From Bacilli bacterium (GTDB lineage Bacteria > Bacillota_I > Bacilli_A > RFN20 > CAG-826), in assembly GCA_017470115.1 (NCBI GenBank), contig JAFUEZ010000003.1, forward strand, positions 173,064 through 237,063: 64,000 nucleotides of DNA. Direction: 5' to 3'. How positions within the stretch are numbered: position 1 is the first letter of the stretch; every line of letters starts with the position of its first letter. Below the pieces are notes generated by a model that was not told the origin of the DNA, searched no databases, and saw only the letters and a program-made list of their open reading frames with translations. Shown here in pieces: positions 1-11,107 of this stretch. Both the position numbers and the translations under genes were made by a program.

Positions 1-1
1 G

Positions 2-211
2 TTTAATAAACAACTCTTTAACATTTTAAACATCAACAAAAAAGATAGATTTACTTTATCTGAAATTTTGCAATGTAAAGTGTTTCTTGGTGATGCAGAT
101 GAGACAAATGAACAAATTGATTCTACACTCAAATTATTTAGGGAAAATGCAATTATTGAATACCTTGGTGGCGGTGAGTATAAAAAATCGTTTAAAATTA
201 TAAATGTTTAA
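2..211 (+). CDS. 3' end of a + strand gene truncated by the window start (no stop in this frame from nt 2 to TAA at 209-211); product unknown
   Basis: Open frame from position 2 (FNKQLFNILNINKK...GGGEYKKSFKIINV*) ends 15 nt before the RBS (GGAGGT) of the next gene, suggesting co-transcription with the PLD nuclease and DUF2075 genes. Confidence 0.3.
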   Translation, partial: FNKQLFNILNINKKDRFTLSEILQCKVFLGDADETNEQIDSTLKLFRENAIIEYLGGGEYKKSFKIINV

Positions 212-226
212 CACGGAGGTACTTAT

Positions 227-1057
227 ATGATTAGTATTGTTAAAACACCATCAAAAGATTCTTTTTTTAATTTAATAAAAGAAGCAAACAGAGAGATGTT
301 GTTTTGTGCTCCGTTTATTAAAAAGGAAATAGTGGATGAAATATTAAAAAACAGGAATCCGGGTGTTGTTTTTGAAGTTATTACGTCAGCAAATTTGGCT
401 AACTTTGTTAATGGATCTCTTGATGTCGAAGCAATAAAGACTCTACTTGAAGCGGGGATAAAAGTAATTAATTTTCAGAATCTTCATGCAAAAATTTATT
501 TGTTTGACAACAAAAAAGCTTTAGTAACCTCTGCAAACTTAACAAACAACGCTTTATACAACAACTACGAGTATGGTTTGCTTTTACATGAAGATGAAAA
601 AGAAACAGTTGATGCAATCTATTCAGATTTTATTATGATGATGGATAGCGAACTGTGCGGTTCATTTGATGAAAATTCCATAAAGGAAATCGAAAAATTC
701 GTTAAAAAATTTAACAATAATAAATTGACTCATATTGACAATGAAGGAGATAGTATTTTGCCAATAGATGAGTCCGACAAAATATCCAACAATTTAAAAG
801 GATGGAAAAAAGACGTGTTCAATTGTCTGCAACTTCTTGATAAACAAGATTTTACAATTTCAGATGTTTATTCGTTTGAAGATGTTTTACATGAAAAGCA
901 TTCAACAAACAATCGCGTAAAGCCTAAAATAAGACAGACGCTTCAATATTTAAGAGATTTAGGATTTGTAAAATTTGTAAAACCAGGTGTTTACAAAAAA
1001 TTATGGATAAATGCTTCTTTTTCAGAATTTTCCAAAAGAACAGAAGTTCAAGCATAA
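227..1057 (+). CDS. PLD-superfamily (single HKD motif) nuclease with extra C-terminal domain, NgoFVII/BfiI/Nuc-like
   Basis: Motif LHAKIYLFDNKKALVTSANLT fits HxK(x)4D(x)6(G/T)SxN of the phospholipase D/nuclease family; GGAGGT RBS 6 nt upstream of the ATG; 276 aa with a C-terminal basic domain that could bind DNA. Confidence 0.6.
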   Translation: MISIVKTPSKDSFFNLIKEANREMLFCAPFIKKEIVDEILKNRNPGVVFEVITSANLANFVNGSLDVEAIKTLLEAGIKVINFQNLHAKIYLFDNKKALVTSANLTNNALYNNYEYGLLLHEDEKETVDAIYSDFIMMMDSELCGSFDENSIKEIEKFVKKFNNNKLTHIDNEGDSILPIDESDKISNNLKGWKKDVFNCLQLLDKQDFTISDVYSFEDVLHEKHSTNNRVKPKIRQTLQYLRDLGFVKFVKPGVYKKLWINASFSEFSKRTEVQA

Positions 1058-1131
1058 ATCAAGCGGCCAATTTGGTCGCTTTTCTTTTTCTGATCTTTTC
1101 TTAATCATATTTAGCTGCTAAGCTATTTATA

Positions 1132-3096
1132 ATGGCAGCTTTAATCAAAGATTATTATAACGATTCGATTTCAAAATTCTTAAGCACATCTTCGGAAACA
1201 ATTTTTGGCGAACTCTTAGTAAAAGATTCTTTTGCTACTGAAGCTACGCAAAAAGATGCTTGGAAATGTGAAATAGAAATACTTAAAGAACAGCTTAAAG
1301 ATATATCTGATGGTTCTATTATTTTCGAATATACTATTCCAAGAATAGGAGACAGAATCGATGTAGCTTTGCTAATCAAAGGTGTTATCTTTGTTCTGGA
1401 ATTTAAAGTTCATAAGAAAACATATGAAATGGCAGACGAAGAGCAAGCAGAAGATTATGCCCTTGATTTGAAATATTTCCATGAGGCTAGTGAACATAGA
1501 TATATAGTTCCCGTTTTAGTAGCAACTGATGCGAAAACCGTTAATTTCAGTGGTGGAATAGCGGAAGATCGTGTTTTTGATTCGCTTCGTTATAATGCCG
1601 TTTCTATTGGAGCACTTATCAAACACGTTTTGTCAATTGTTAGTGATTCGGACATTAATAGAGATGCTTGGATAAAATCGCCATACAGACCAACACCAAC
1701 AATCATTGAAGCGGCTAAAGCTTTATATCAGCATCATGACGTTAAAGAGATTTCAAGAAGCGAAGCAGGTGCTGAGAATTTAGAGAAAACTAACGGCGCT
1801 ATTACATACGTAATTGATAAATGTAAGAGTGAGCACAAAAAAGCTATTTGTTTTATTACCGGTGTTCCTGGTGCAGGTAAAACTCTTGCTGGTTTAAATA
1901 TTGCAAACACAAGACATGATTTTGATAATGATGAACACGCTATCTTTCTTTCTGGTAACGGCCCATTAGTGGAAGTCCTCCAAGAAGCTCTCGCTAGAGA
2001 TGCAGTTGTTCATCAAGGTATCAAGAAGGGTATAGCTAAAGTCGGAACTAAATCATTTATTCAGATTGTTCACCATTTCAGAGACGAATCATTAGATCCA
2101 GACAATGTTCCACATGATAAGATAGCTATTTTTGATGAAGCTCAAAGAGCGTGGGACGAGTCTCAACTCTCTAACTTCATGCAAAGAAAGAAGAATCAAC
2201 CAGGTTATCACATGAGTGAACCTCATTCTTTAATTGAATATATGAACCGTCATAAAGACTGGGCAACGATTGTGTGCCTTGTCGGTGGTGGGCAAGAAAT
2301 CAATACTGGAGAAGGTGGATTAAAAGACTGGTTTGAAGCAATAAGAACCTATTTCCCTGATTGGGAAGTATATATATCTAATAAGATTACAGATTATGAA
2401 TATGTTCGTGATTCATCCATTGATGAGCTTTTAGGTGGACACCCATATAACGTTATCCCTGAGCTTCATTTGAGTGTCAACATGCGTTCCTTTAGAAGTG
2501 AAAAATTATCTGACTTTGTAAAAGCAATTATCGATAATAGGCCTGAAGATGCAAAAAGAATCTATTTAGAAATAAAAGATAAATATCCTGTTGCGATCAC
2601 CAGAGATCTCAATGTTGCTAAGAATTGGGTTAGGACAAAGTCTAGAGGCACAGAAAGATATGGTTTAATGGCATCATCAGCCGCCGAAAGACTAAGAGCC
2701 AAAGGAATATGGGCTTCTAACGAAATTAAGCCAACCAAATGGTTTTTAGATGGCAAAGATGAAGTTGATTCGTCATATCAATTAGAAGTGACTGCTACAG
2801 AGTTTGCAGTACAGGGACTAGAAATTGATTATGGCATTGTCGCTTGGGATGGAGATTTTAGACATAATGGCAACGAATTTGAATATAAACGTTTCACCAG
2901 AAACATGTGGTGCAATGTTAATTCGGACATTAGAAAGCAATACTTAAAGAATGCATACCGTGTATTGCTAACAAGATCTAGACAAGGGTTTGTTATATTT
3001 GTTCCTGAAGGAAGCGATATAGATCCATCAACAAGTCCTAAGATTTATGACAAGACTTTTGAATATTTAAAGAGTATTGGACTAGAAGTTATATAA
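1132..3096 (+). CDS. DUF2075-type protein: N-terminal PD-(D/E)xK nuclease-like domain fused to a P-loop SF1-like helicase/ATPase
   Basis: GDRIDVALLIKGVIFVLEFK (D...ExK nuclease signature), Walker A GVPGAGKT, Walker B/DEAQ box IAIFDEAQRAW; 654 aa, the typical DUF2075 architecture. Confidence 0.6.
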   Translation: MAALIKDYYNDSISKFLSTSSETIFGELLVKDSFATEATQKDAWKCEIEILKEQLKDISDGSIIFEYTIPRIGDRIDVALLIKGVIFVLEFKVHKKTYEMADEEQAEDYALDLKYFHEASEHRYIVPVLVATDAKTVNFSGGIAEDRVFDSLRYNAVSIGALIKHVLSIVSDSDINRDAWIKSPYRPTPTIIEAAKALYQHHDVKEISRSEAGAENLEKTNGAITYVIDKCKSEHKKAICFITGVPGAGKTLAGLNIANTRHDFDNDEHAIFLSGNGPLVEVLQEALARDAVVHQGIKKGIAKVGTKSFIQIVHHFRDESLDPDNVPHDKIAIFDEAQRAWDESQLSNFMQRKKNQPGYHMSEPHSLIEYMNRHKDWATIVCLVGGGQEINTGEGGLKDWFEAIRTYFPDWEVYISNKITDYEYVRDSSIDELLGGHPYNVIPELHLSVNMRSFRSEKLSDFVKAIIDNRPEDAKRIYLEIKDKYPVAITRDLNVAKNWVRTKSRGTERYGLMASSAAERLRAKGIWASNEIKPTKWFLDGKDEVDSSYQLEVTATEFAVQGLEIDYGIVAWDGDFRHNGNEFEYKRFTRNMWCNVNSDIRKQYLKNAYRVLLTRSRQGFVIFVPEGSDIDPSTSPKIYDKTFEYLKSIGLEVI

Positions 3097-3184
3097 AACA
3101 TAGTTAAGCAACTCAAAAACACAGTTTAGTAATATACTAAAAAGGCCTATATACAAAGTATATAGGTATTTTCAAACCCCGTAT

Positions 3185-3376
3185 CAGGGAATACATTTTC
3201 AATTGTTTTTTTCTTTTTATAAGGAAGAAGTAGTAAAAATCTTAATAGATAAGATAATCCAATTGATAAAATTAGCATTCCTAGTAGCATCAATATGACA
3301 TTAAAAACGCCATATGTTTTATAGTCAAAAATTGGATATGGGAAGCGGATATATCCTGATTCTTGAAATGGTGCAC
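3185..3376. repeat. Copy 1 of the ~190-bp R1 repeat, a duplicated 3' end (last ~62 codons plus stop and ~12 nt downstream) of the membrane-protein gene at 24323..25009
   Basis: High identity to 24311..24508 (cagggaatacatttt...ttctttttataaggaagaagtagtaaaaatcttaatag...aaatggtgca); further copies at 7034..7226 and 22230..22402. Confidence 0.85.
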
Positions 3377-3599
3377 GAGGCCTTGAATACTACATTGGGA
3401 TTGTCGCGTTTTTGATAGTCGGTAATACTATATATAGTATTAATCAAACAAACACATTCCCTGATACGTTACATTGCGAGATTGTCGTTCGCTTAATTCT
3501 TCGAAATAGCGGTCTAAACTGAAATAATTTTAAAAAAAATCAAAAAAATGCAGATAAACCTGTCATTTCGTGGTATATTAGTGTTGTGAGGTGATTTAC

Positions 3600-4868
3600 A
3601 TGCGTAAAAAATTATATCCAAGAGAATTGTATCTAAAGAAAATCAGACCTTTTTATCATGAAAACGATTTAATCAAAGTTATTACCGGTGTTAGAAGATG
3701 TGGAAAATCATCTCTGATGCAGTTAATCGCGAAAGAGTTAATCAAAAGCGGCGTAGATGAGAACAACATTGTTTATTTGAATCTTGATAAAAGGCCGTAT
3801 AGAAGAGTTAAAAAAGCTGACCAACTTGAAGATATTCTTGCAAGCAAACTTGATCCCATTAAAGGAGATAAATACCTATTCATTGACGAAATACAAAATG
3901 TAAAAGATTTCGAAGAAGTGATTAATGCTTTTAGAGAAGATGATAATTGTTCCATTTTTATAACTGGAAGCAATGCTTATTTGTTATCTGGAGAATTAGC
4001 CACAAAATTAACTGGTCGATATTTAGAATTCAATGTTGGCACATTATCTTTTTTTGAATATATTGAAATGAAGAAATTCTTCAAAAAGCCAATCGATAAT
4101 GACTTAGAAATCGAACTTAACAACTATATATTAGAAGGCGGTTTTCCACTTGCGGTAAAATACGACACCATTCTTGACAAGCGCAATTACGTAAAAAGCA
4201 TTATTGATGAAATATATAAGAAGGACGTTAAAAAGAATAAAAAGATTAAAAACAGACACTTATTCAACCAAATTCAAACATATATCATTAACAACTTTGG
4301 TGCCACAACTTCAGTTATTTCACTTTGCGATTATTTAGAACAGGTCAATGGGAAAAGACCAAGCAATAACACTGTCTATTCATATTTAAAGATACTTGAA
4401 GATGTAAAAATTATATCTTGCTGTCATCGTTTTGACATGAAGAGCAAAACATCGCTTAACGGAGAAGAAAAATATTATCTTTCAGATTTAAGCTTCTATT
4501 TTGTAGATCAAACTGATAATAGAATCAACTACGGTCCAGTTCTTGAAAACATCGTTTATAACTATTTACTTTCTAACGATTATTCTTCTTCTATCGGGAG
4601 AATCGGAAAATTAGAAGTTGATTTTATTGCTAGAGATGAAACCACTCTTGATTATGCGTACATTCAAGTCGCAATGCGTATCTTTAATGATATATATGAT
4701 GAGAATGGAAAATTAATCACTGAAGAAAGAGAATACGCACCGTTAGAAAGAATTACCGACGGGTATCCGAGATATTTATTAACGCTCGACAAACTTTTAC
4801 AAAAGAGAAGTGGTGTCAAGCACGTGAACCTTATTAACTTCATGCTCAAAAACGAAAAATTTATATAG
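3600..4868 (+). CDS. AAA+ ATPase of the COG1373 family (AAA_14 + DUF4143 domains)
   Basis: N-terminal P-loop ITGVRRCGKSSLMQ, Walker B LFIDEIQNV, length ~420 aa; true ATG at 3600 after RBS GTGAGGTGA (the track ORF starts at a GTG at 3591). Confidence 0.75.
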   Translation: MRKKLYPRELYLKKIRPFYHENDLIKVITGVRRCGKSSLMQLIAKELIKSGVDENNIVYLNLDKRPYRRVKKADQLEDILASKLDPIKGDKYLFIDEIQNVKDFEEVINAFREDDNCSIFITGSNAYLLSGELATKLTGRYLEFNVGTLSFFEYIEMKKFFKKPIDNDLEIELNNYILEGGFPLAVKYDTILDKRNYVKSIIDEIYKKDVKKNKKIKNRHLFNQIQTYIINNFGATTSVISLCDYLEQVNGKRPSNNTVYSYLKILEDVKIISCCHRFDMKSKTSLNGEEKYYLSDLSFYFVDQTDNRINYGPVLENIVYNYLLSNDYSSSIGRIGKLEVDFIARDETTLDYAYIQVAMRIFNDIYDENGKLITEEREYAPLERITDGYPRYLLTLDKLLQKRSGVKHVNLINFMLKNEKFI

Positions 4869-4967: not shown

Positions 4968-5063
4968 TATATAAGAGAATATGTTAGAAGTTTATTACTT
5001 AGCAATAAGTTTTCGGAATCATTATTAAATTTAAATGAAAAATAGTGAAAAAATAGTGAAATA
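4968..5063. repeat. R2 repeat copy 1 (~95 bp) immediately downstream of ATPase gene 1
   Basis: atataagagaatatgttagaagtttattacttagcaataagttttcggaatcattattaaatttaaatgaaaaatagtgaaaaaatagtgaaat recurs at 6833..6927 downstream of the second ATPase gene. Confidence 0.8.
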
Positions 5064-5201
5064 AGAATACATCGATATATTTTTAGTGTAAAAATGGCTC
5101 AAATTTTCCATAGGGTTGAAATTGACACATATCTTTTTTTTGATACCATTGTCGCTGGAAACATATGTTTATAACCTTTGTAGGCGAGAATATAACAAAA
5201 A

Positions 5202-5285
5202 TTGGTGCAAAACCATTAAAAAGTCACTCGGAATTTGGTGCAAAACTATTAAAAAGTCACTCGGAATTTGGTGCAAATTGTATTT
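5202..5285. repeat. Tandem direct repeat of a 30-bp unit (2 full copies + 1 partial) ~50 bp upstream of ATPase gene 2
   Basis: ttggtgcaaaaccattaaaaagtcactcggaa / tttggtgcaaaactattaaaaagtcactcggaa / tttggtgcaaattg read directly from the sequence; the track ORFs 5116..5301 and the 5' extension of 5165..6685 are translations of this repeat. Confidence 0.8.
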
Positions 5286-5332
5286 ACTGCTCTTCATTTA
5301 AGTATTATACTATTTTCGAGGAGACTGCATTT

Positions 5333-6685
5333 ATGGATACAATATATTTTAGAAGAAAAATAGATAAAAGATTATCAGAATGGTTTGAAAGCAAGGACCA
5401 TTCACCAGCATTAGTTTATGGAATAAGGCAATGTGGGAAGAGCAAAAGCATAGAACAATTTGCAAAATCTCATTTTAAAAATGTAAATTCTATAGATTTT
5501 TGGAAGACACCAAACGCCAAGATAGCATTTGAAGAATCTCTTGAAGTAGACGCAATAACAAAATCTTTAACTGGTTTATTTCCTTCTTTTAAATTCGTGC
5601 CTCACGAAACAGTTTTGATATTAGATGAAATTCAAGATTGTCCTAAAGCAAGGCTGGCGTTAAAAAGTTTTAAAAAAGATGGAAGGTATGAAATTATCGC
5701 TAGTGGATCATATATTGGATTAAATATTGACAGCAGCAGTGTTCCAAAACCAAATGGCTCTGAAGATTTTCTTGAAATGAAAACAATGGATTTTGAAGAA
5801 TTTTTATGGGCGATGGGATATGACGATGCTTTTATAAATGATTTATTAAAACACTTTAAAAACAAAACAGAAGTTCCTAAGGCTATTCATCTAAAAATGA
5901 AACAGCTATTCAATGAATATGTTTGTGTTGGAGGATATCCAGAGGCACTAATGAAGTTCATTAATTCAAATAGTTACTCTGAAGCATTTAAAAAAGTAAA
6001 GAGTCTTATTATTGACATAAAAGGTGACCCCGCAAAAAGGAAAAACGAAAAGGAAGAATTTGAATATACTGCAACAGAGATTGCCAGAATTCAAAAGGCG
6101 TTTGATTTAATAGCGGCGTTTGTTGTTAAAGATAACCAAAGATTTATCACTTCTAAAATAAGTGGCAACAGTTATCAGAGAAGCGATGCGGTTAATTATT
6201 TATTAAATTCTTCTGTTGCATATAAAGCGTTTAATGTGGAAGTTCCGTCATTACCTTTGGCGGTTAGAAAAATTGATGCTGAATTTAAATTATTTTACGC
6301 CGATATAGGAATAATGATAAATGAACTTGGTTTTGATGTTATTAAAGGGATTTTACAAAACGGATTAAGTCTAGGGATGAACAAAGGATACTTATATGAA
6401 GCTGTTGTTGCAGATTCGCTTTACAAAGCTAATGTTCCTCTATTCTATTTTGGAAAAGAAAGTGGCCTTGAGGTTGATTTAGTTATTTCTTATAACGGAG
6501 ATGCGACATTAATAGAAGCAAAATCAACAACAGGTAATACTAAATCAAGCAAACAAATAATGAAAAACCCAGATCATTATGGAAAAACTAAATTAATAAA
6601 AATCGGTGATTACAACATTTCAGAAACTGGAGATATAACAACAATTCCACATTACTTAACATTTGTATTAGGAAAAGAATTATAG
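5333..6685 (+). CDS. Second COG1373-family AAA+ ATPase (AAA_14 + DUF4143), a divergent paralog of 3600..4868
   Basis: P-loop VYGIRQCGKSKSIEQF, Walker B LILDEIQDCP; start moved to the ATG at 5333 (MDTIYFRRK...) because the 5' part of the track ORF is the translated tandem repeat. Confidence 0.7.
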   Translation: MDTIYFRRKIDKRLSEWFESKDHSPALVYGIRQCGKSKSIEQFAKSHFKNVNSIDFWKTPNAKIAFEESLEVDAITKSLTGLFPSFKFVPHETVLILDEIQDCPKARLALKSFKKDGRYEIIASGSYIGLNIDSSSVPKPNGSEDFLEMKTMDFEEFLWAMGYDDAFINDLLKHFKNKTEVPKAIHLKMKQLFNEYVCVGGYPEALMKFINSNSYSEAFKKVKSLIIDIKGDPAKRKNEKEEFEYTATEIARIQKAFDLIAAFVVKDNQRFITSKISGNSYQRSDAVNYLLNSSVAYKAFNVEVPSLPLAVRKIDAEFKLFYADIGIMINELGFDVIKGILQNGLSLGMNKGYLYEAVVADSLYKANVPLFYFGKESGLEVDLVISYNGDATLIEAKSTTGNTKSSKQIMKNPDHYGKTKLIKIGDYNISETGDITTIPHYLTFVLGKEL

Positions 6686-6832: not shown

Positions 6833-6927
6833 ATATATTAGAGAATATGTTAGAAGTTTATTACTTAGCAATAAGTTTTCGAAATCATTATTAAATTTAA
6901 ATGAAAAATAGCGAAAAAATAGTGAAA
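6833..6927. repeat. R2 repeat copy 2
   Basis: Near-identical to 4968..5063. Confidence 0.8.
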
Positions 6928-7033
6928 TTATAATGAAAACATAACTATGATTTAAAAATGTCCAAAACATTGTTTAGTAGCCTATAATTTGGCTTTGTTT
7001 TCACAATTATGGACAACATTTTTCACTTTGTAT

Positions 7034-7226
7034 TAGGGAATACATTTTTATTTTTCTTTATTCTTTTTATAAGGAAGAAGTAGTAAAAATCTTAATAGAT
7101 AAGATAATCCAATTGATAAAATTAGCATTGCTAGTAGCATCAATATGACATTAAATACGCCATATGTTTTATAGTCAAAAATTGGATAAAGGAAGCGAAT
7201 ATATCCTGATTCTTGAAATGGTGCAA
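7034..7226. repeat. R1 repeat copy 2 (3'-end fragment of gene 24323..25009)
   Basis: tagggaatacattttt...ttctttttataaggaagaagtagtaaaaatcttaatagataagataatcc...ctgattcttgaaatggtgcaac. Confidence 0.85.
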
Positions 7227-7414
7227 CCCGTGCCGTATAGTCTTATTGTTTTTAGCCGGTTTTAACCAATTTCCTAATAGATTTATCTATTAGAAGAAAA
7301 CCATTAAACAGCACAAATGAACAAAAAAGTGCCGTTTTTATGTTAAAATGGTAAAATTATAAAAAAAGTACCAAAGTATTGCAAAAATGTAATATTATGG
7401 TTATATTATTATAT

Positions 7415-8149
7415 ATGAAACAGTTACCTAAGCTATTTTCTTTTAATGAATTAAAAGATACCTACAAGACGGCGTCTGATTTTTCTGTGTTTGTTTATCG
7501 TGCAATAAAAAGAGGAGATATAAAGAAAGTTAAAAGAGGCCTATATGCATTAGTTAATCCGTCGACTGGAATGATCTTTGTTACTAAATTCCAAATAGCC
7601 AGTCATTTATTTGATGATGCTTATTTCTCTTATCATGACGCTCTTGAATATTACGGCTTAGCAAATCAGTCATTCGTTTCTATATTTACTTATTTAACTA
7701 AGTCACATGCTCGTGATTTAGAATTCGAAGATGTTACATATAAAGCTAAGAAATCCAATAGCGATTTATTCATACGCGATAGAATGAAAGAAGAAGGGAT
7801 ACGTGTAGTATCTTTAGAGCGTGCTATCATAGATTCAATAGACTGTTTATCTTTGGCGGGCGGCTTAGAAGAAGTGGAATACGCTCTTGATTACTGCCCT
7901 AAACTAAACCTTAAAGATGTACAGTTACTCCTAAAAGCCTATGATAAGAACCTTTTATACCAGAAGGTTGGCTATTTATTCGAGAAACACTTTGGTAATG
8001 ACATACCTGAAGAATTTTATAAAGTGTGTTTAAAACATTCAGGAAATACAGTGATGTATCTAGAATGCAATCCTGGTGAAGGTAAATTAAACGCTAAATG
8101 GAAACTAATGATAAAAGAGGAAGGATACCTACCTAATGAACTATTCTGA
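7415..8149 (+). CDS. AbiEi/AbiGi-like protein (putative antitoxin/transcriptional regulator partner of the AbiEii nucleotidyltransferase)
   Basis: Paralog of 22589..23323 (shared KRG.YALVNPSTG.IF.TKFQIASHLFDDAYFSYH, SLERAI.DSID); lies directly upstream of and overlaps an AbiEii-type nucleotidyltransferase gene; start set at the ATG at 7415 by alignment with the paralog (track ORF starts at TTG 7379). Confidence 0.5.
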   Translation: MKQLPKLFSFNELKDTYKTASDFSVFVYRAIKRGDIKKVKRGLYALVNPSTGMIFVTKFQIASHLFDDAYFSYHDALEYYGLANQSFVSIFTYLTKSHARDLEFEDVTYKAKKSNSDLFIRDRMKEEGIRVVSLERAIIDSIDCLSLAGGLEEVEYALDYCPKLNLKDVQLLLKAYDKNLLYQKVGYLFEKHFGNDIPEEFYKVCLKHSGNTVMYLECNPGEGKLNAKWKLMIKEEGYLPNELF

Positions 8150-9078
8150 AGACTACATTTCTAATTTTGGAAAACAAACTGGATTTATCAATGCTAATAT
8201 TGAAAAAGTTATTAGGCTTTTAGATATCCTTGCTTTTATCGATTCTAATTTAGATCCATATCATGAAAAGCTTGTCTTAAAGGGCGGCACTGCGATTAAT
8301 TTAATAATTACAAACCTCGCTCGTTTAAGCGTTGATATCGATTTAGATTATATCGGTAGCCTTGATAAAGAGAAGATGAGCGTTGATAGAGACGCTATTA
8401 TGTCAGCTCTAGATAACTTTATGTTAAAAGAGGGTTACGCCGTCTCACTAGAAAAATCTAGAAGTAGTGTTATCTTAGCAAGCAGAAATTATTCTTATAC
8501 AAACGATTTTGGCAATAGAGATAACATCAAGGTTGAAATTAATTTTATTGATAGAATTCATGTTTGCCCAAGCACCAAAAAGAAAGTTAAGTATTTCGAG
8601 AAAGAACTAATGGTGCATACTCCTTTTAGAAGCTGAGCTTTTTGGAATGAAAATTGCCGCTCTTATTGATAGACATAAACCAAGAGATTTGTTTGATATT
8701 TATAAACTAAAAGGATACATGCCTTATCTAGATAAGGATAGAGTTAGAAAACTTGCGGTATTCTATTTATCATTAGATGGCATTTTTGAGCTCAACGAAG
8801 CTAATTTTGATAATGTTAATAAAATTACACAAGACTCAATAAAAAAAGAATTACGGCCGGTCCTTGCTAAAGGAAACATGTTTGATTTAAATATCGCAAA
8901 AGAAGAAGTCATTAAATTCTTGAAGGATTTGCTCGTACTCACAGATAACGAAAAGAAATATCTAATAGAATTCTCAAATGGAAACTTTGACCCATATCTT
9001 TTATTTGAACCAAATGACGCAGAAAGTGCCACTAAACATCCAATGGCTAAGTGGAGAGCGGCTAATTTAAAGAGGTAG
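8136..9078 (+). pseudogene. AbiEii/AbiGii-family nucleotidyltransferase (DUF1814-like) disrupted by a frameshift near 8620-8640 (track ORFs 8136..8636 and 8647..9078)
   Basis: N-terminal NTase motifs LKGGTAINL and RLSVDIDLDY; colinear with the intact paralog 23310..24248, but the frame changes at ...MVHTPF|RS* and the +1 frame continues LLEAELFGMKIAALIDRHKPRDLF. Confidence 0.7.
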
Positions 9079-9082
9079 CCAC

Positions 9083-10426
9083 ATGGACATGAAACAAGTG
9101 GAAGGGTTTTATTATTATCAAGACGAAAAACACGCCACTGTTTTAATCGTGGATTATCTGAAACATTATGTTCAAAAGATAATGAATTGCCCTCCTGGAG
9201 AATGCATGAATGATGAAGCCATGGAGTATATTTCGGTTAATACAGCAACCATCATGCTTGAAGGTTTTAGTAGAAAGTTTTTCGTGATTCAAGAAATTAA
9301 TTATGGGAACGAGGAGCCTAGCGAAGAACAAAAAAGAAAATTTCATGTATTCGATGAGTTCAATAAACGCTATACAAAACATTTGAAATACATCAAAGAA
9401 GAAGCAAGACTCTATCAGATTTTAAATGAGAAGCGATTCACATATACCGAAATTAACGATAGACATATAGAATCGCTACATAAAGTTGATCCTACTCTAA
9501 TCCATAGTTTTTTGAGTACATTAATTCCTGATGATTTGCCAGAAAAAGAAAGGACTGTGGCTTTGGCTAATATCATGAAAAACAGAGATAAAAATGGCTT
9601 TGATGATTTAATGAAAGAGCTTCATAAAGATAAAGCCTATGAAGAATCTAATGAATTATCTAAAAAAATACAGCCAGCATTCATGGAGTTTCTTAAAGCT
9701 TTTGTTGATGTTGAACTTCTCATGGCCAAAGAATATTCCCTTTATACCGACAAATATAAGAAAAAGATGGATGAATATGCTGATAAAGGTTTATTCCTTT
9801 ACTGTCTAAATACTCCAGATTTGCCAATAGATGCCGAAGATATCACAATGGATGACATCTATAATTATTTTTTGAATGATGATGCAATGTTCCTTCAGGG
9901 AATGTTTGAAGTATTCATCAAGCATGGCGATGTTGGTGGTGAAATTAATAAAAGAGAAGCAGATGATATTGTTGCATCTTATAACCTATTAATTGAAGGA
10001 AAATATTGGGCCTCGCTTAGAAACCTTTATGCTTTAATTGATCATCACCATAAATTGTGCGCAGGTATATTTAATGGCTATGAAGAAGCTAAGAAAGAAT
10101 TTAAAAACGGCAAGGAAAGGTCTGAATACATTTGTAAATTATTCACTGATACCAAGGTTTATTATTACGAGGCTGTTTGGCATAAACTAGATGCCGCGAT
10201 TGAAGAAATGAATAAGGGTTGTGGAGACAGATTTGTTTCTAGAAACGCTATTATTCATGGTGATTATGAAAAACCTGATGTTAATCCGCAAGCCAAAGAT
10301 GTAATTAATGTTTTTATGATTTACATAACAATGAGAATGATTATTGATAGATTAACTAATATCGAGGAGATCATTAAGGAATCAAATATTTATTATTTAA
10401 GTTATAAGACAAAAGGATGGCTTTGA
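9083..10426 (+). CDS. Hypothetical 447-aa, predicted all-alpha protein with no recognisable motif; start overlaps the end of the AbiEii pseudogene
   Basis: Long intact ORF with RBS AAGAGG; its stop is followed by a hairpin that sequesters the RBS of the next gene. Confidence 0.55.
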   Translation: MDMKQVEGFYYYQDEKHATVLIVDYLKHYVQKIMNCPPGECMNDEAMEYISVNTATIMLEGFSRKFFVIQEINYGNEEPSEEQKRKFHVFDEFNKRYTKHLKYIKEEARLYQILNEKRFTYTEINDRHIESLHKVDPTLIHSFLSTLIPDDLPEKERTVALANIMKNRDKNGFDDLMKELHKDKAYEESNELSKKIQPAFMEFLKAFVDVELLMAKEYSLYTDKYKKKMDEYADKGLFLYCLNTPDLPIDAEDITMDDIYNYFLNDDAMFLQGMFEVFIKHGDVGGEINKREADDIVASYNLLIEGKYWASLRNLYALIDHHHKLCAGIFNGYEEAKKEFKNGKERSEYICKLFTDTKVYYYEAVWHKLDAAIEEMNKGCGDRFVSRNAIIHGDYEKPDVNPQAKDVINVFMIYITMRMIIDRLTNIEEIIKESNIYYLSYKTKGWL

Positions 10427-10708: not shown

Positions 10709-10795
10709 GGGTATTTTTATTATTTTATGAACCACTTGGCTCATTGTGGATATTTTCTTTGGTTAATAACATTAATACGAAAGGAGGTACTCAAA

Positions 10796-11107
10796 ATGTC
10801 AAAATACAATACCATTGATGTTTGGAACAAGGTGTTTGGCTCCGCTCAAGAAGTCAGAGATTACACTGGCAGGCTAATGAAAAAGTCAGCCTGTGGAAAT
10901 ACTAGAAGCCAATATCATCCAACATTAGATCACATTAGGCCATTATCAAAAGGTGGCTCAGATGTACTAGACAATATTATAGTTTGCCATCGTGATACCA
11001 ACGAAGAAAAAGCCGATGCATTCCCACACTGGACAGCAAACGGCAAAAGATATCATGCGGTCAGAGTCAAAGGCTCTAGAGTGGCATACGACATTATTGA
11101 AGACTAG
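10796..11107 (+). CDS. HNH endonuclease, ~103 aa
   Basis: RBS AAGGAGGT 8 nt upstream of the ATG at 10796; HPTLDHIRPLSKGGSDVLDNIIVCHRDTNEEK = H-N-H motif with Cys/His ligands. Confidence 0.65.
   Translation: MSKYNTIDVWNKVFGSAQEVRDYTGRLMKKSACGNTRSQYHPTLDHIRPLSKGGSDVLDNIIVCHRDTNEEKADAFPHWTANGKRYHAVRVKGSRVAYDIIED

Follow-up and report, generated by a model that had tools for sequence, protein, structure and literature searches.

The first 3,116 nucleotides of a 64,000-nucleotide stretch of a Bacilli bacterium genome (assembly GCA_017470115.1, contig JAFUEZ010000003.1; the whole stretch is called the window below) carry a gene for a phospholipase D (PLD) nuclease fused to a winged helix (wH) and, directly downstream, a gene for a DUF2075 nuclease-helicase. 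Comparison of the two genes with their relatives indicates, with a probability of about 0.8, that they are independent single-gene anti-phage modules lying side by side in a defense island. Both genes are almost certainly defensive. Positions 1..3116 would comprise the tail of one defense module, a multigene block named here after its PDC-M33 genes, and two complete single-gene modules. Three coding elements, all on the + strand, were found in positions 1..3096, in a region of ∼30%–37% G+C. The open reading frames (ORFs) at 227..1057 (+, 276 residues) and 1132..3096 (+, 654 residues) agree with those described in an earlier interpretation made from the letters alone (the sequence-only reading); they are long and their profile matches are very strong, and they are therefore not chance features. 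The ratio of nonsynonymous to synonymous substitution rates (dN/dS) was 0.04–0.07 for the PLD-wH gene against its relatives and 0.02 for the DUF2075 gene. Because this points to strong purifying selection on both genes, they are judged to be functional cassettes and not debris. The features are listed below, with the basis of each assignment in brackets.

2..211, + strand: 3′ end of the PDC-M33C/DUF6339 gene, the last 69 codons and the stop codon (frame-2 translation)

215..219, + strand: Shine-Dalgarno sequence GGAGG of the PLD-wH gene (read from the sequence)

227..1057, + strand: PLD-wH gene, 276 residues (ORF, Pfam, PADLOC, relatives)

269..628, + strand: single-HKD PLD nuclease domain, residues 15–134 (PLDc_2)

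785..1003, + strand: DpnI-type wH reader domain, residues 187–259 (alignment to the DpnI structure)

1061..1091, + strand: hairpin resembling an intrinsic terminator, followed by TTCTTTTTCT, at the junction of the two modules (folding)

1080..3116, + strand: DUF2075 module (90.6% nucleotide identity to locus L098, in an unrelated context)

1132..3096, + strand: nuclease-helicase gene, 654 residues (PADLOC PDC-S41, Pfam)

1132..1686, + strand: N-terminal PD-(D/E)xK-like domain, residues 1–185 (invariant residues, domain model, Foldseek)

1840..3006, + strand: DUF2075/SLFN group-3 helicase core, residues 237–625 (Pfam)

1861..1884, + strand: Walker A motif GVPGAGKT, residues 244–251 (motif in the DUF2075 core)

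2134..2145, + strand: Walker B motif DEAQ, residues 335–338 (motif in the DUF2075 core)

The PLD-wH and DUF2075 genes are separated by a spacer of 74 nt and had been read as an operon. The junction argues against this. Four bases past the PLD-wH stop codon, at 1061..1081, lies a hairpin with a 9-bp stem, including five G-C pairs, and a 3-nt loop, followed by a run of T. The region from 1050 to 1135 (86 nt) folds with −19.3 kcal/mol (z −3.1), and the predicted structure includes this hairpin. The limits of nucleotide homology coincide with it. Homology of the PLD-wH gene to locus L084 ends at window position 1059, and that to L085 and L086 is confined to the gene itself; homology of the DUF2075 gene to L098 spans 1080..3116.

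Close relatives of each gene are found without the other. The PLD-wH proteins that are 91% (L084) and 95% (L087) identical are followed by an opposite-strand gene and by a gene for a 203-residue HNH protein, respectively, and those that are ∼71% (L085) and ∼69% (L086) identical stand after a NOV_C gene and a GmrSD gene, in both cases without DUF2075 or M33 genes. The DUF2075 copies with 97% (L098), 67% (L089), and 57% (L093) identity follow a type I restriction-modification (RM) system, a helix-turn-helix gene, and an AIPR-Dcm-Vsr block, and none of them stands after a PLD gene. The pair was found only on contigs with an identical PLD protein and the same surrounding genes, which are probably of the same lineage as the window. 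Within 10 kb of PLD-wH, none of 76 loci in other GTDB species has a gene for DUF2075 or M33. The gene-neighborhood check that the sequence-only reading had proposed shows conservation of the pair neither across close relatives nor across other species. Clustering of all neighbors of the PLD-wH loci gave no recurrent partner besides a small ORF in ∼12 loci. The immediate neighbors (66 upstream and 70 downstream genes) represent 116 Pfam families upstream and 70 downstream, none of them seen more than three to four times, and many are RM or other defense genes. The two genes are not assigned to a joint system because of the terminator-like hairpin, the separate homology boundaries, and the absence of co-inheritance. 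They would be transcribed and inherited separately, and their adjacency would be ordinary stacking of cassettes in a defense island.

Both parts of the PLD-wH protein are recognizable by profile. In Pfam, PLDc_2 covers residues 15–134 (E 3.6e-17), accompanied by RE_NgoFVII (E 1.4e-6) and the PLDc motif (E 3.9e-6), and DpnI_C covers residues 191–258 above its curated cut-off (E 1.3e-24). PADLOC splits the protein into a DrmC-type PLD domain (residues 19–126) and a "type II methyl-directed restriction enzyme" (residues 187–259). The best match among solved structures is the wH of DpnI (4esj/4kyw; E 1.9e-11, residues 187–259, 29 of 73 identical), and the N-terminal part matches the structures of NucT, a mitochondrial PLD nuclease, and BfiI weakly. 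The catalytic residues of the PLD domain are H87, K89, D94, S102, N104, and E115; D94 is present in 67 of 68 relatives, and the other five are invariant both in a set of 30 and in all 68. The PLDc_2 match and the invariant HKD residues bear out the call of a single-HKD PLD nuclease. The "basic C-terminal domain" described earlier is a real region, but its identity is that of a DpnI_C winged helix. In DpnI, residues E228, K229, R231, Q232, and Q235 form two methyl-group pockets and hydrogen-bond to bases (PMC3424567). The recognition helix of the window protein reads P233-K234-I-R236-Q237-T-L-Q240, and by alignment P233, K234, R236, Q237, and Q240 take the places of these five residues, with four of the five kept. 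The K, R, Q, and Q are retained in 61–67 of 68 relatives, and the position of E228 is occupied by A, P, E, or D.

These features identify the gene, as far as homology allows, as one for a PLD-wH endonuclease and a candidate member of the N6-methyladenine (6mA)-dependent type IV restriction family. By analogy with Nuc and BfiI, two subunits would pair into one metal-independent active site, and the winged helices would dock on DNA with fully methylated 6mA-T sites, either of the Dam type (G6mATC) or closely similar to it. Cutting nearby by the PLD site may then follow, with a phospho-histidine as the covalent intermediate; Dam-methylated DNA of foreign origin would be destroyed, and host DNA would be spared if it does not carry the mark. 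As the catalytic domain is a PLD domain, which is not sequence-specific, specificity must come from the wH alone and cutting is expected outside the site. The family comprises 324 clusters in the protein collection (E ≤ 1e-5) and 305 confirmed stretches among GTDB species representatives. Its members are found in Bacillota, Chloroflexota, Planctomycetota, Bacteroidota, and other phyla and also in Asgard archaea, with many from Chloroflexota (Dehalococcoidia), the phylum of the published member CbaI. In phage records, the protein had a single match, which is partial and covers the wH alone.

The 654-residue protein matches SLFN-g3_helicase/DUF2075 in Pfam (residues 237–625, E 3.7e-77) and, over its whole length, the PADLOC model PDC-S41 (905 bits, E 5.6e-273; residues 6–653 against profile positions 3–652 of 657); AbiO (E 9e-5) and Cas3b are its other PADLOC matches. 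With Walker A and DEAQ both present, the earlier description of a DUF2075 protein with a DEAQ-box P-loop ATPase is confirmed. Both motifs, GVPGAGKT and DEAQ, are unchanged in 22 relatives, as are E66, D77, and E90-x-K92 within the N-terminal 190 residues, where E66, D77, E90, and K92 are the candidate catalytic residues. The protein has at least 8000 relatives, and the best 120 listed are almost all 651–656 residues long.

The N-terminal domain had been described as a PD-(D/E)xK nuclease. A model of residues 1–192 (pLDDT 84.9, pTM 0.86) has a helix at 38–54; strands at 62–66, 77–82, and 85–92; a helix at 100–116; and a strand at 125–131. This alpha-beta-beta-beta-alpha-beta topology is the order of the PD-(D/E)xK core, with D77 opening strand two and E90-x-K92 in strand three. 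The top Foldseek matches of the model are McrC (probability 0.90), Cdn1 (0.91), VC1899, Can2, ACE1 (Cas4 family), Card1, Kpn2I, and BspD6I, all of them PD-(D/E)xK nucleases, but with E values of 0.012 or higher. In Pfam, HSDR_N (E 0.06) and NERD (E 0.14) match the N terminus below threshold; a search of PDB sequences with a profile of this domain found nothing relevant. A full-length AlphaFold model was set aside, as its mean pLDDT was 64, the helicase core was poorly resolved, and Foldseek returned noise and a weak match to McrC. On account of the invariant motif, the model topology, the weak Foldseek matches, and the subthreshold Pfam matches, the nuclease assignment is accepted at moderate strength. 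The gene is, by its profile matches, that of a predicted Nhi-like nuclease-helicase of the PDC-S41 family. If Nhi of Staphylococcus is a guide, the protein would act alone, and its ATP-driven helicase and nuclease would degrade phage replication intermediates.

The 52-nt leader of the DUF2075 gene (1080..1131) is conserved in L098, i.e., it travels with the gene. A scan of this leader recognized neither a Shine-Dalgarno sequence nor a promoter; a TATAAT overlaps the start codon. The transcript is possibly leaderless.

Upstream of the PLD-wH gene, a frame-2 ORF is open from the window start and ends with a stop codon at 209..211, leaving 15 nt to the start codon of PLD-wH. The sequence-only reading had noted this fragment and considered it as a third gene of a PLD/DUF2075 operon; the spacing stands, but the fragment belongs to the last gene of the M33 block. 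For the leftward extension, contigs with an identical PLD protein were used (L001), and positions 2..211 are the only part of the block that overlaps the window. The full gene (L001 8672–9985) encodes 437 residues, with matches to PDC-M33C in PADLOC (E 1.1e-65), to DUF6339 in Pfam (E 8.5e-43), and to DpnI_C (E 0.003–0.009). It had also been considered whether the truncated gene might encode a methyltransferase accompanying a type II enzyme; it is a DUF6339/PDC-M33C gene and not one for a methyltransferase. The C terminus of M33C is a diverged DpnI_C-like wH with 30% identity over 69 residues to the wH of the PLD protein (E 4e-7), and it carries Q, D, S, and K in place of the DpnI contact residues K, R, Q, and Q.

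The block spans L001 3563–9985 and consists of genes for a D12 methyltransferase, a McrA-like HNH protein (272 residues), a 76-residue ORF, PDC-M33A (654 residues), PDC-M33B (294 residues), and PDC-M33C. The stops and starts of the M33A, M33B, and M33C genes overlap, and neither M33A nor M33B has a Pfam match. The order methyltransferase-HNH-A-B-C recurs at 78% (L100), 47% (L102), and 44% (L103) M33C identity, with the 76-residue ORF in L100 only; L105 has a short M33C without the methyltransferase-HNH pair. In none of these four loci was a PLD gene found after M33C, and the stop codon of M33C is exactly where L100 and L001 cease to be homologous. The PLD-wH gene is, on this comparison, not a regular component of PDC-M33. 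A metagenome scan with M33C gave only two close loci, and a literature search for PDC-M33, DUF6339, and PDC-S41 gave no papers. The MANTIS (Gao_RL) preprint, which mentions PLD, DpnI, and wH, was considered; its components are unrelated to M33.

The methyltransferase of the block (L001 3563–4693) lies 6 kb upstream of the PLD-wH gene and belongs to the Dam family, with 185 bits against TIGR00571 (cut-off 115). Its best solved relative is DpnM, a GATC enzyme (E 1e-25), in a comparison of specificity that covers only structures of GATC enzymes. By alignment, it keeps equivalents of K9, Y119, R124, and P134 of E. coli Dam and not those of N120 and R137. In 73.8 kb of the genome, CGCG is the only palindromic 4-mer that is more depleted than GATC and CATG (observed/expected 0.61 and 0.65). 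Such depletion would fit either specificity and does not decide between them. Tandem D12 methyltransferases are also found a short way upstream of the ∼70% identical PLD-wH genes of L085 and L086.

Several points weigh against the assignment of the two genes to independent modules with the functions proposed here. A terminator-like hairpin does not prove termination, and the DUF2075 gene, as its leader indicates, is without a recognizable Shine-Dalgarno sequence or promoter of its own. The PLD gene follows M33C after 15 nt with no terminator between them in three related contexts (window/L001, L084, and L087), in which it is likely to be cotranscribed with M33. If the upstream methyltransferase methylates GATC or CATG, a reader of G/C-6mA-T-G/C would be predicted to attack the host; a conflict of the same kind was noted for Aba4572I (PMC11037411). 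The residue corresponding to DpnI E228 is a proline here, at a position that varies among 68 relatives, and this may affect the predicted specificity for flanking bases. Published PLD-wH members show methyl-dependent toxicity only in part, Aba4572I being anomalous, and none has been purified (PMC11037411); we infer methyl-dependent cleavage by the family. Finally, direct similarity of the 654-residue protein to staphylococcal Nhi was not found, as PADLOC gives no match to an Nhi model. A tblastn search of plasmids with this protein matched Bacillus, Persicobacter, Niallia, and Exiguobacterium and not Staphylococcus.

The short distance between M33C and the PLD gene raises the question of whether the latter was recruited in this lineage as an extra effector of the methyltransferase-HNH-M33ABC block, cotranscribed with it and functionally coupled to it, for example via the homologous winged helices that M33C and the PLD protein both carry or via the methylation that the block installs. 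The strong ribosome-binding site within the 15-nt gap, the persistence of the adjacency in three contexts with different downstream genes, the homology of the two winged helices, and the position of all four PLD-wH loci of the subclade 1–6 kb downstream of D12 methyltransferases are consistent with such recruitment. It is nevertheless unlikely. The three contexts are closely related (PLD 91%–100% identical), and shared ancestry suffices to explain them. More distant M33 blocks end without a PLD gene, one of them with a loss of homology precisely at the M33C stop codon, and the ∼70% identical PLD relatives follow a NOV_C or a GmrSD gene instead. The wH of M33C does not carry the DpnI contact residues, and PLD-wH is solitary in 76 other species. 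A broader form of this proposal, that the neighbors which matter are those upstream and not the DUF2075 gene and that the Dam-family methyltransferase, the McrA-like HNH protein, the 76-residue protein, M33A, M33B, and the DUF6339-wH protein constitute a conserved methylation-linked defense block that captured PLD-wH as an added cotranscribed effector, is slightly less probable still. If it were true, and if the methyltransferase of the block writes 6mA in an A-T context, PLD-wH would not be a simple G6mATC-dependent killer and would either respond to another mark or be under the control of the block.

The sequence-only reading had pointed to a different arrangement, one operon made up of the genes for the PLD nuclease, the DUF2075 protein, and perhaps the protein encoded upstream, which would specify an unnamed nuclease-helicase immunity system. 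Such a system would be analogous to Mokosh type I, in which a helicase is combined with a PLD nuclease. The two genes share a strand with a gap of only 74 nt, and both encode nuclease-type proteins in a defense island. Mokosh, DISARM, and SauUSI offer precedents for a PLD nuclease working with a helicase, and the PLD-wH protein has weak PADLOC matches to MkoB, MkoC, and DrmC. A helicase of superfamily 1 (SF1; AAA_11/AAA_12) stands directly upstream of PLD-wH in one of 66 other loci (L004). The hairpin exactly at the junction and the independent homology boundaries speak against a single system, however, as does the absence of the pair from the 91%–95% PLD relatives, from the 97% DUF2075 relative, and from all 76 loci of other species. 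Moreover, the DUF2075 protein has no MkoA match, and PADLOC lists PDC-S41 as a single-gene candidate. The view of a pair or trio acting as one system is, by these comparative data, largely refuted and must be considered very improbable. The L004 locus (6880–9981; Erysipelotrichaceae, PLD-wH 55% identical) is in itself a Mokosh-like juxtaposition, with an upstream 1034-residue AAA_11/AAA_12 SF1 helicase that has a DUF2726 nuclease-like C terminus.

That PLD-wH is the restriction half of a conventional RM pair, cutting unmethylated sites while a nearby adenine methyltransferase protects the host, would fit the Dam-family enzyme upstream, the depletion of GATC and CATG (observed/expected 0.61 and 0.65), the ∼6–12 loci from other phyla in which PLD-wH is followed at operon-like spacing by an ∼80-residue ORF and/or an N6_N4 methyltransferase, and the amino-methyltransferase beside Aba4572I (PMC11037411), but is highly unlikely given that the methyltransferase lies 6 kb away and is paired with its own HNH nuclease, a pairing kept without PLD in L100, L102, and L103, that most PLD-wH loci have no adjoining methyltransferase, that the wH keeps the residues that build the methyl pocket in DpnI, and that CbaI is toxic specifically in Dam+ E. 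coli, with Aba4572I as the outlier (PMC11037411).

The small ORF mentioned above encodes ∼80–100 residues without a Pfam match (consensus YIFLTTEGYTFQP...ENxQVIGF...AF.NL) and either adjoins or overlaps the stop codon of PLD-wH in ∼12 loci from other phyla (among them L018, L022, L030, L031, L034, L036, L037, L040, L051, L056, and L071). An N6_N4 amino-methyltransferase gene is found near PLD-wH in six loci (L018, L032, L033, L036, L041, and L078) and follows the small ORF directly in L018 and L036. This suggests a methyltransferase-linked subfamily of PLD-wH genes. In the window, a small ORF of this kind is not present after the PLD-wH gene.

The earlier placement of both genes as nuclease-type defense candidates in a defense island holds, with PDC-M33, two PDC-S01 genes, and AbiEi/AbiEii as neighbors. 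The PDC-S01 genes (AAA_14-DUF4143) lie at 3591..4868 and 5165..6685 and are bracketed by two pairs of intergenic direct repeats, one of 180 nt with 94% identity (3196–3375 and 7046–7225) and one of 101 nt with 95% identity (4968–5068 and 6834–6934), in a cassette-like layout. A 33-nt tandem duplication is found at 5199–5264. Farther downstream comes the AbiEi gene (7379..8149) and then AbiEii, whose coding sequence is divided between two ORFs, 8136..8636 covering profile positions 1–149 and 8647..9078 covering positions 171–305; this toxin gene is probably frameshifted or interrupted. The ORF at 9083..10426 (447 residues) has no match in Pfam or PADLOC, and that at 10727..11107 encodes a small stand-alone HNH endonuclease (126 residues, HNH_4 E 3e-6).

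The window thus adds one PLD-wH gene and one Nhi-like/PDC-S41 gene to families of hundreds and thousands of members, and a false candidate for a new system is removed. The PLD-wH family is far larger and wider than the 27 members reported. The clean boundaries of both cassettes are convenient for cloning. At least three related contigs have PLD-wH beside a gene for a Dam-family methyltransferase, which offers a natural setting in which to examine the "genomic conflict" left open by Helbrecht et al. The Dam-family methyltransferase-HNH-M33ABC block, although mostly outside the window, is a more interesting lead than the PLD and DUF2075 pair.

Among known systems, the PLD-wH gene is closest in design to Aba4572I and CbaI, which belong to a set of 27 PLD-wH fusions that Helbrecht et al. 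(2024, Front Microbiol, PMC11037411) classed with the wH-fusion type IV restriction systems dependent on 6mA. Compared by their published description, they share with the window protein an N-terminal single-HKD PLD domain and a C-terminal DpnI-type wH in ∼260–280 residues, a stand-alone gene in defense islands, and the KxRQxxQ motif of the recognition helix. The window copy differs in its origin from an uncultured Bacilli bacterium, in the proline at the position of DpnI E228, and in its location, which immediately follows a PDC-M33 block and is 6 kb away from the gene for a Dam-family methyltransferase. With this last point as a caveat, it is solitary, with no obligatory partner or cognate methyltransferase and with contexts that vary even at 70%–95% identity. 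R.DpnI (type IIM, Gm6ATC; 4esj and 4kyw) has the homologous C-terminal wH, in which four of five contact residues correspond, but where DpnI has a sequence-specific PD-(D/E)xK domain, the window protein has a metal-independent PLD domain. The wH of DpnI alone has a relaxed specificity for S-6mA-T-S (S being G or C).

Mokosh type I (MkoA and MkoB) and DISARM DrmC resemble the arrangement in the window in having a PLD-family nuclease near an SF1-type helicase. The PLD core matches DrmC (E 1.5e-21, residues 19–126) and, more weakly, MkoB/MkoC (E 1e-5 to 1e-6; MkoB E 3.9e-5 on the HKD core). Mokosh type I was rejected, as the 654-residue protein does not match MkoA, the MkoB match is to the HKD core only, the helicase is DUF2075 and not COG1112, and the pair is not conserved. 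DISARM was likewise rejected; the matches are to the generic HKD core only, and no DrmA, DrmB, DrmD, or DrmE was found among the 8 upstream and 15 downstream proteins scanned. The second gene has its counterpart in Nhi (SERP2475), a single-protein nuclease-helicase defense that blocks the accumulation of phage DNA (bioRxiv 10.1101/776245; Bari et al., 2022), and in the "Nhi-like" proteins described by Millman et al. (10.1101/2022.05.11.491447). PDC-S41 is a computational single-gene candidate of PADLOC. All of these combine PD-(D/E)xK and DUF2075 (PF09848) in one protein of ∼650 residues and are solitary in defense islands with horizontal spread. The pair had been thought to be unnamed and perhaps novel; both architectures are already known, PLD-wH from the work on Aba4572I and CbaI (PMC11037411) and the nuclease-DUF2075 fusion as Nhi and Nhi-like, which corresponds to PDC-S41 in PADLOC.

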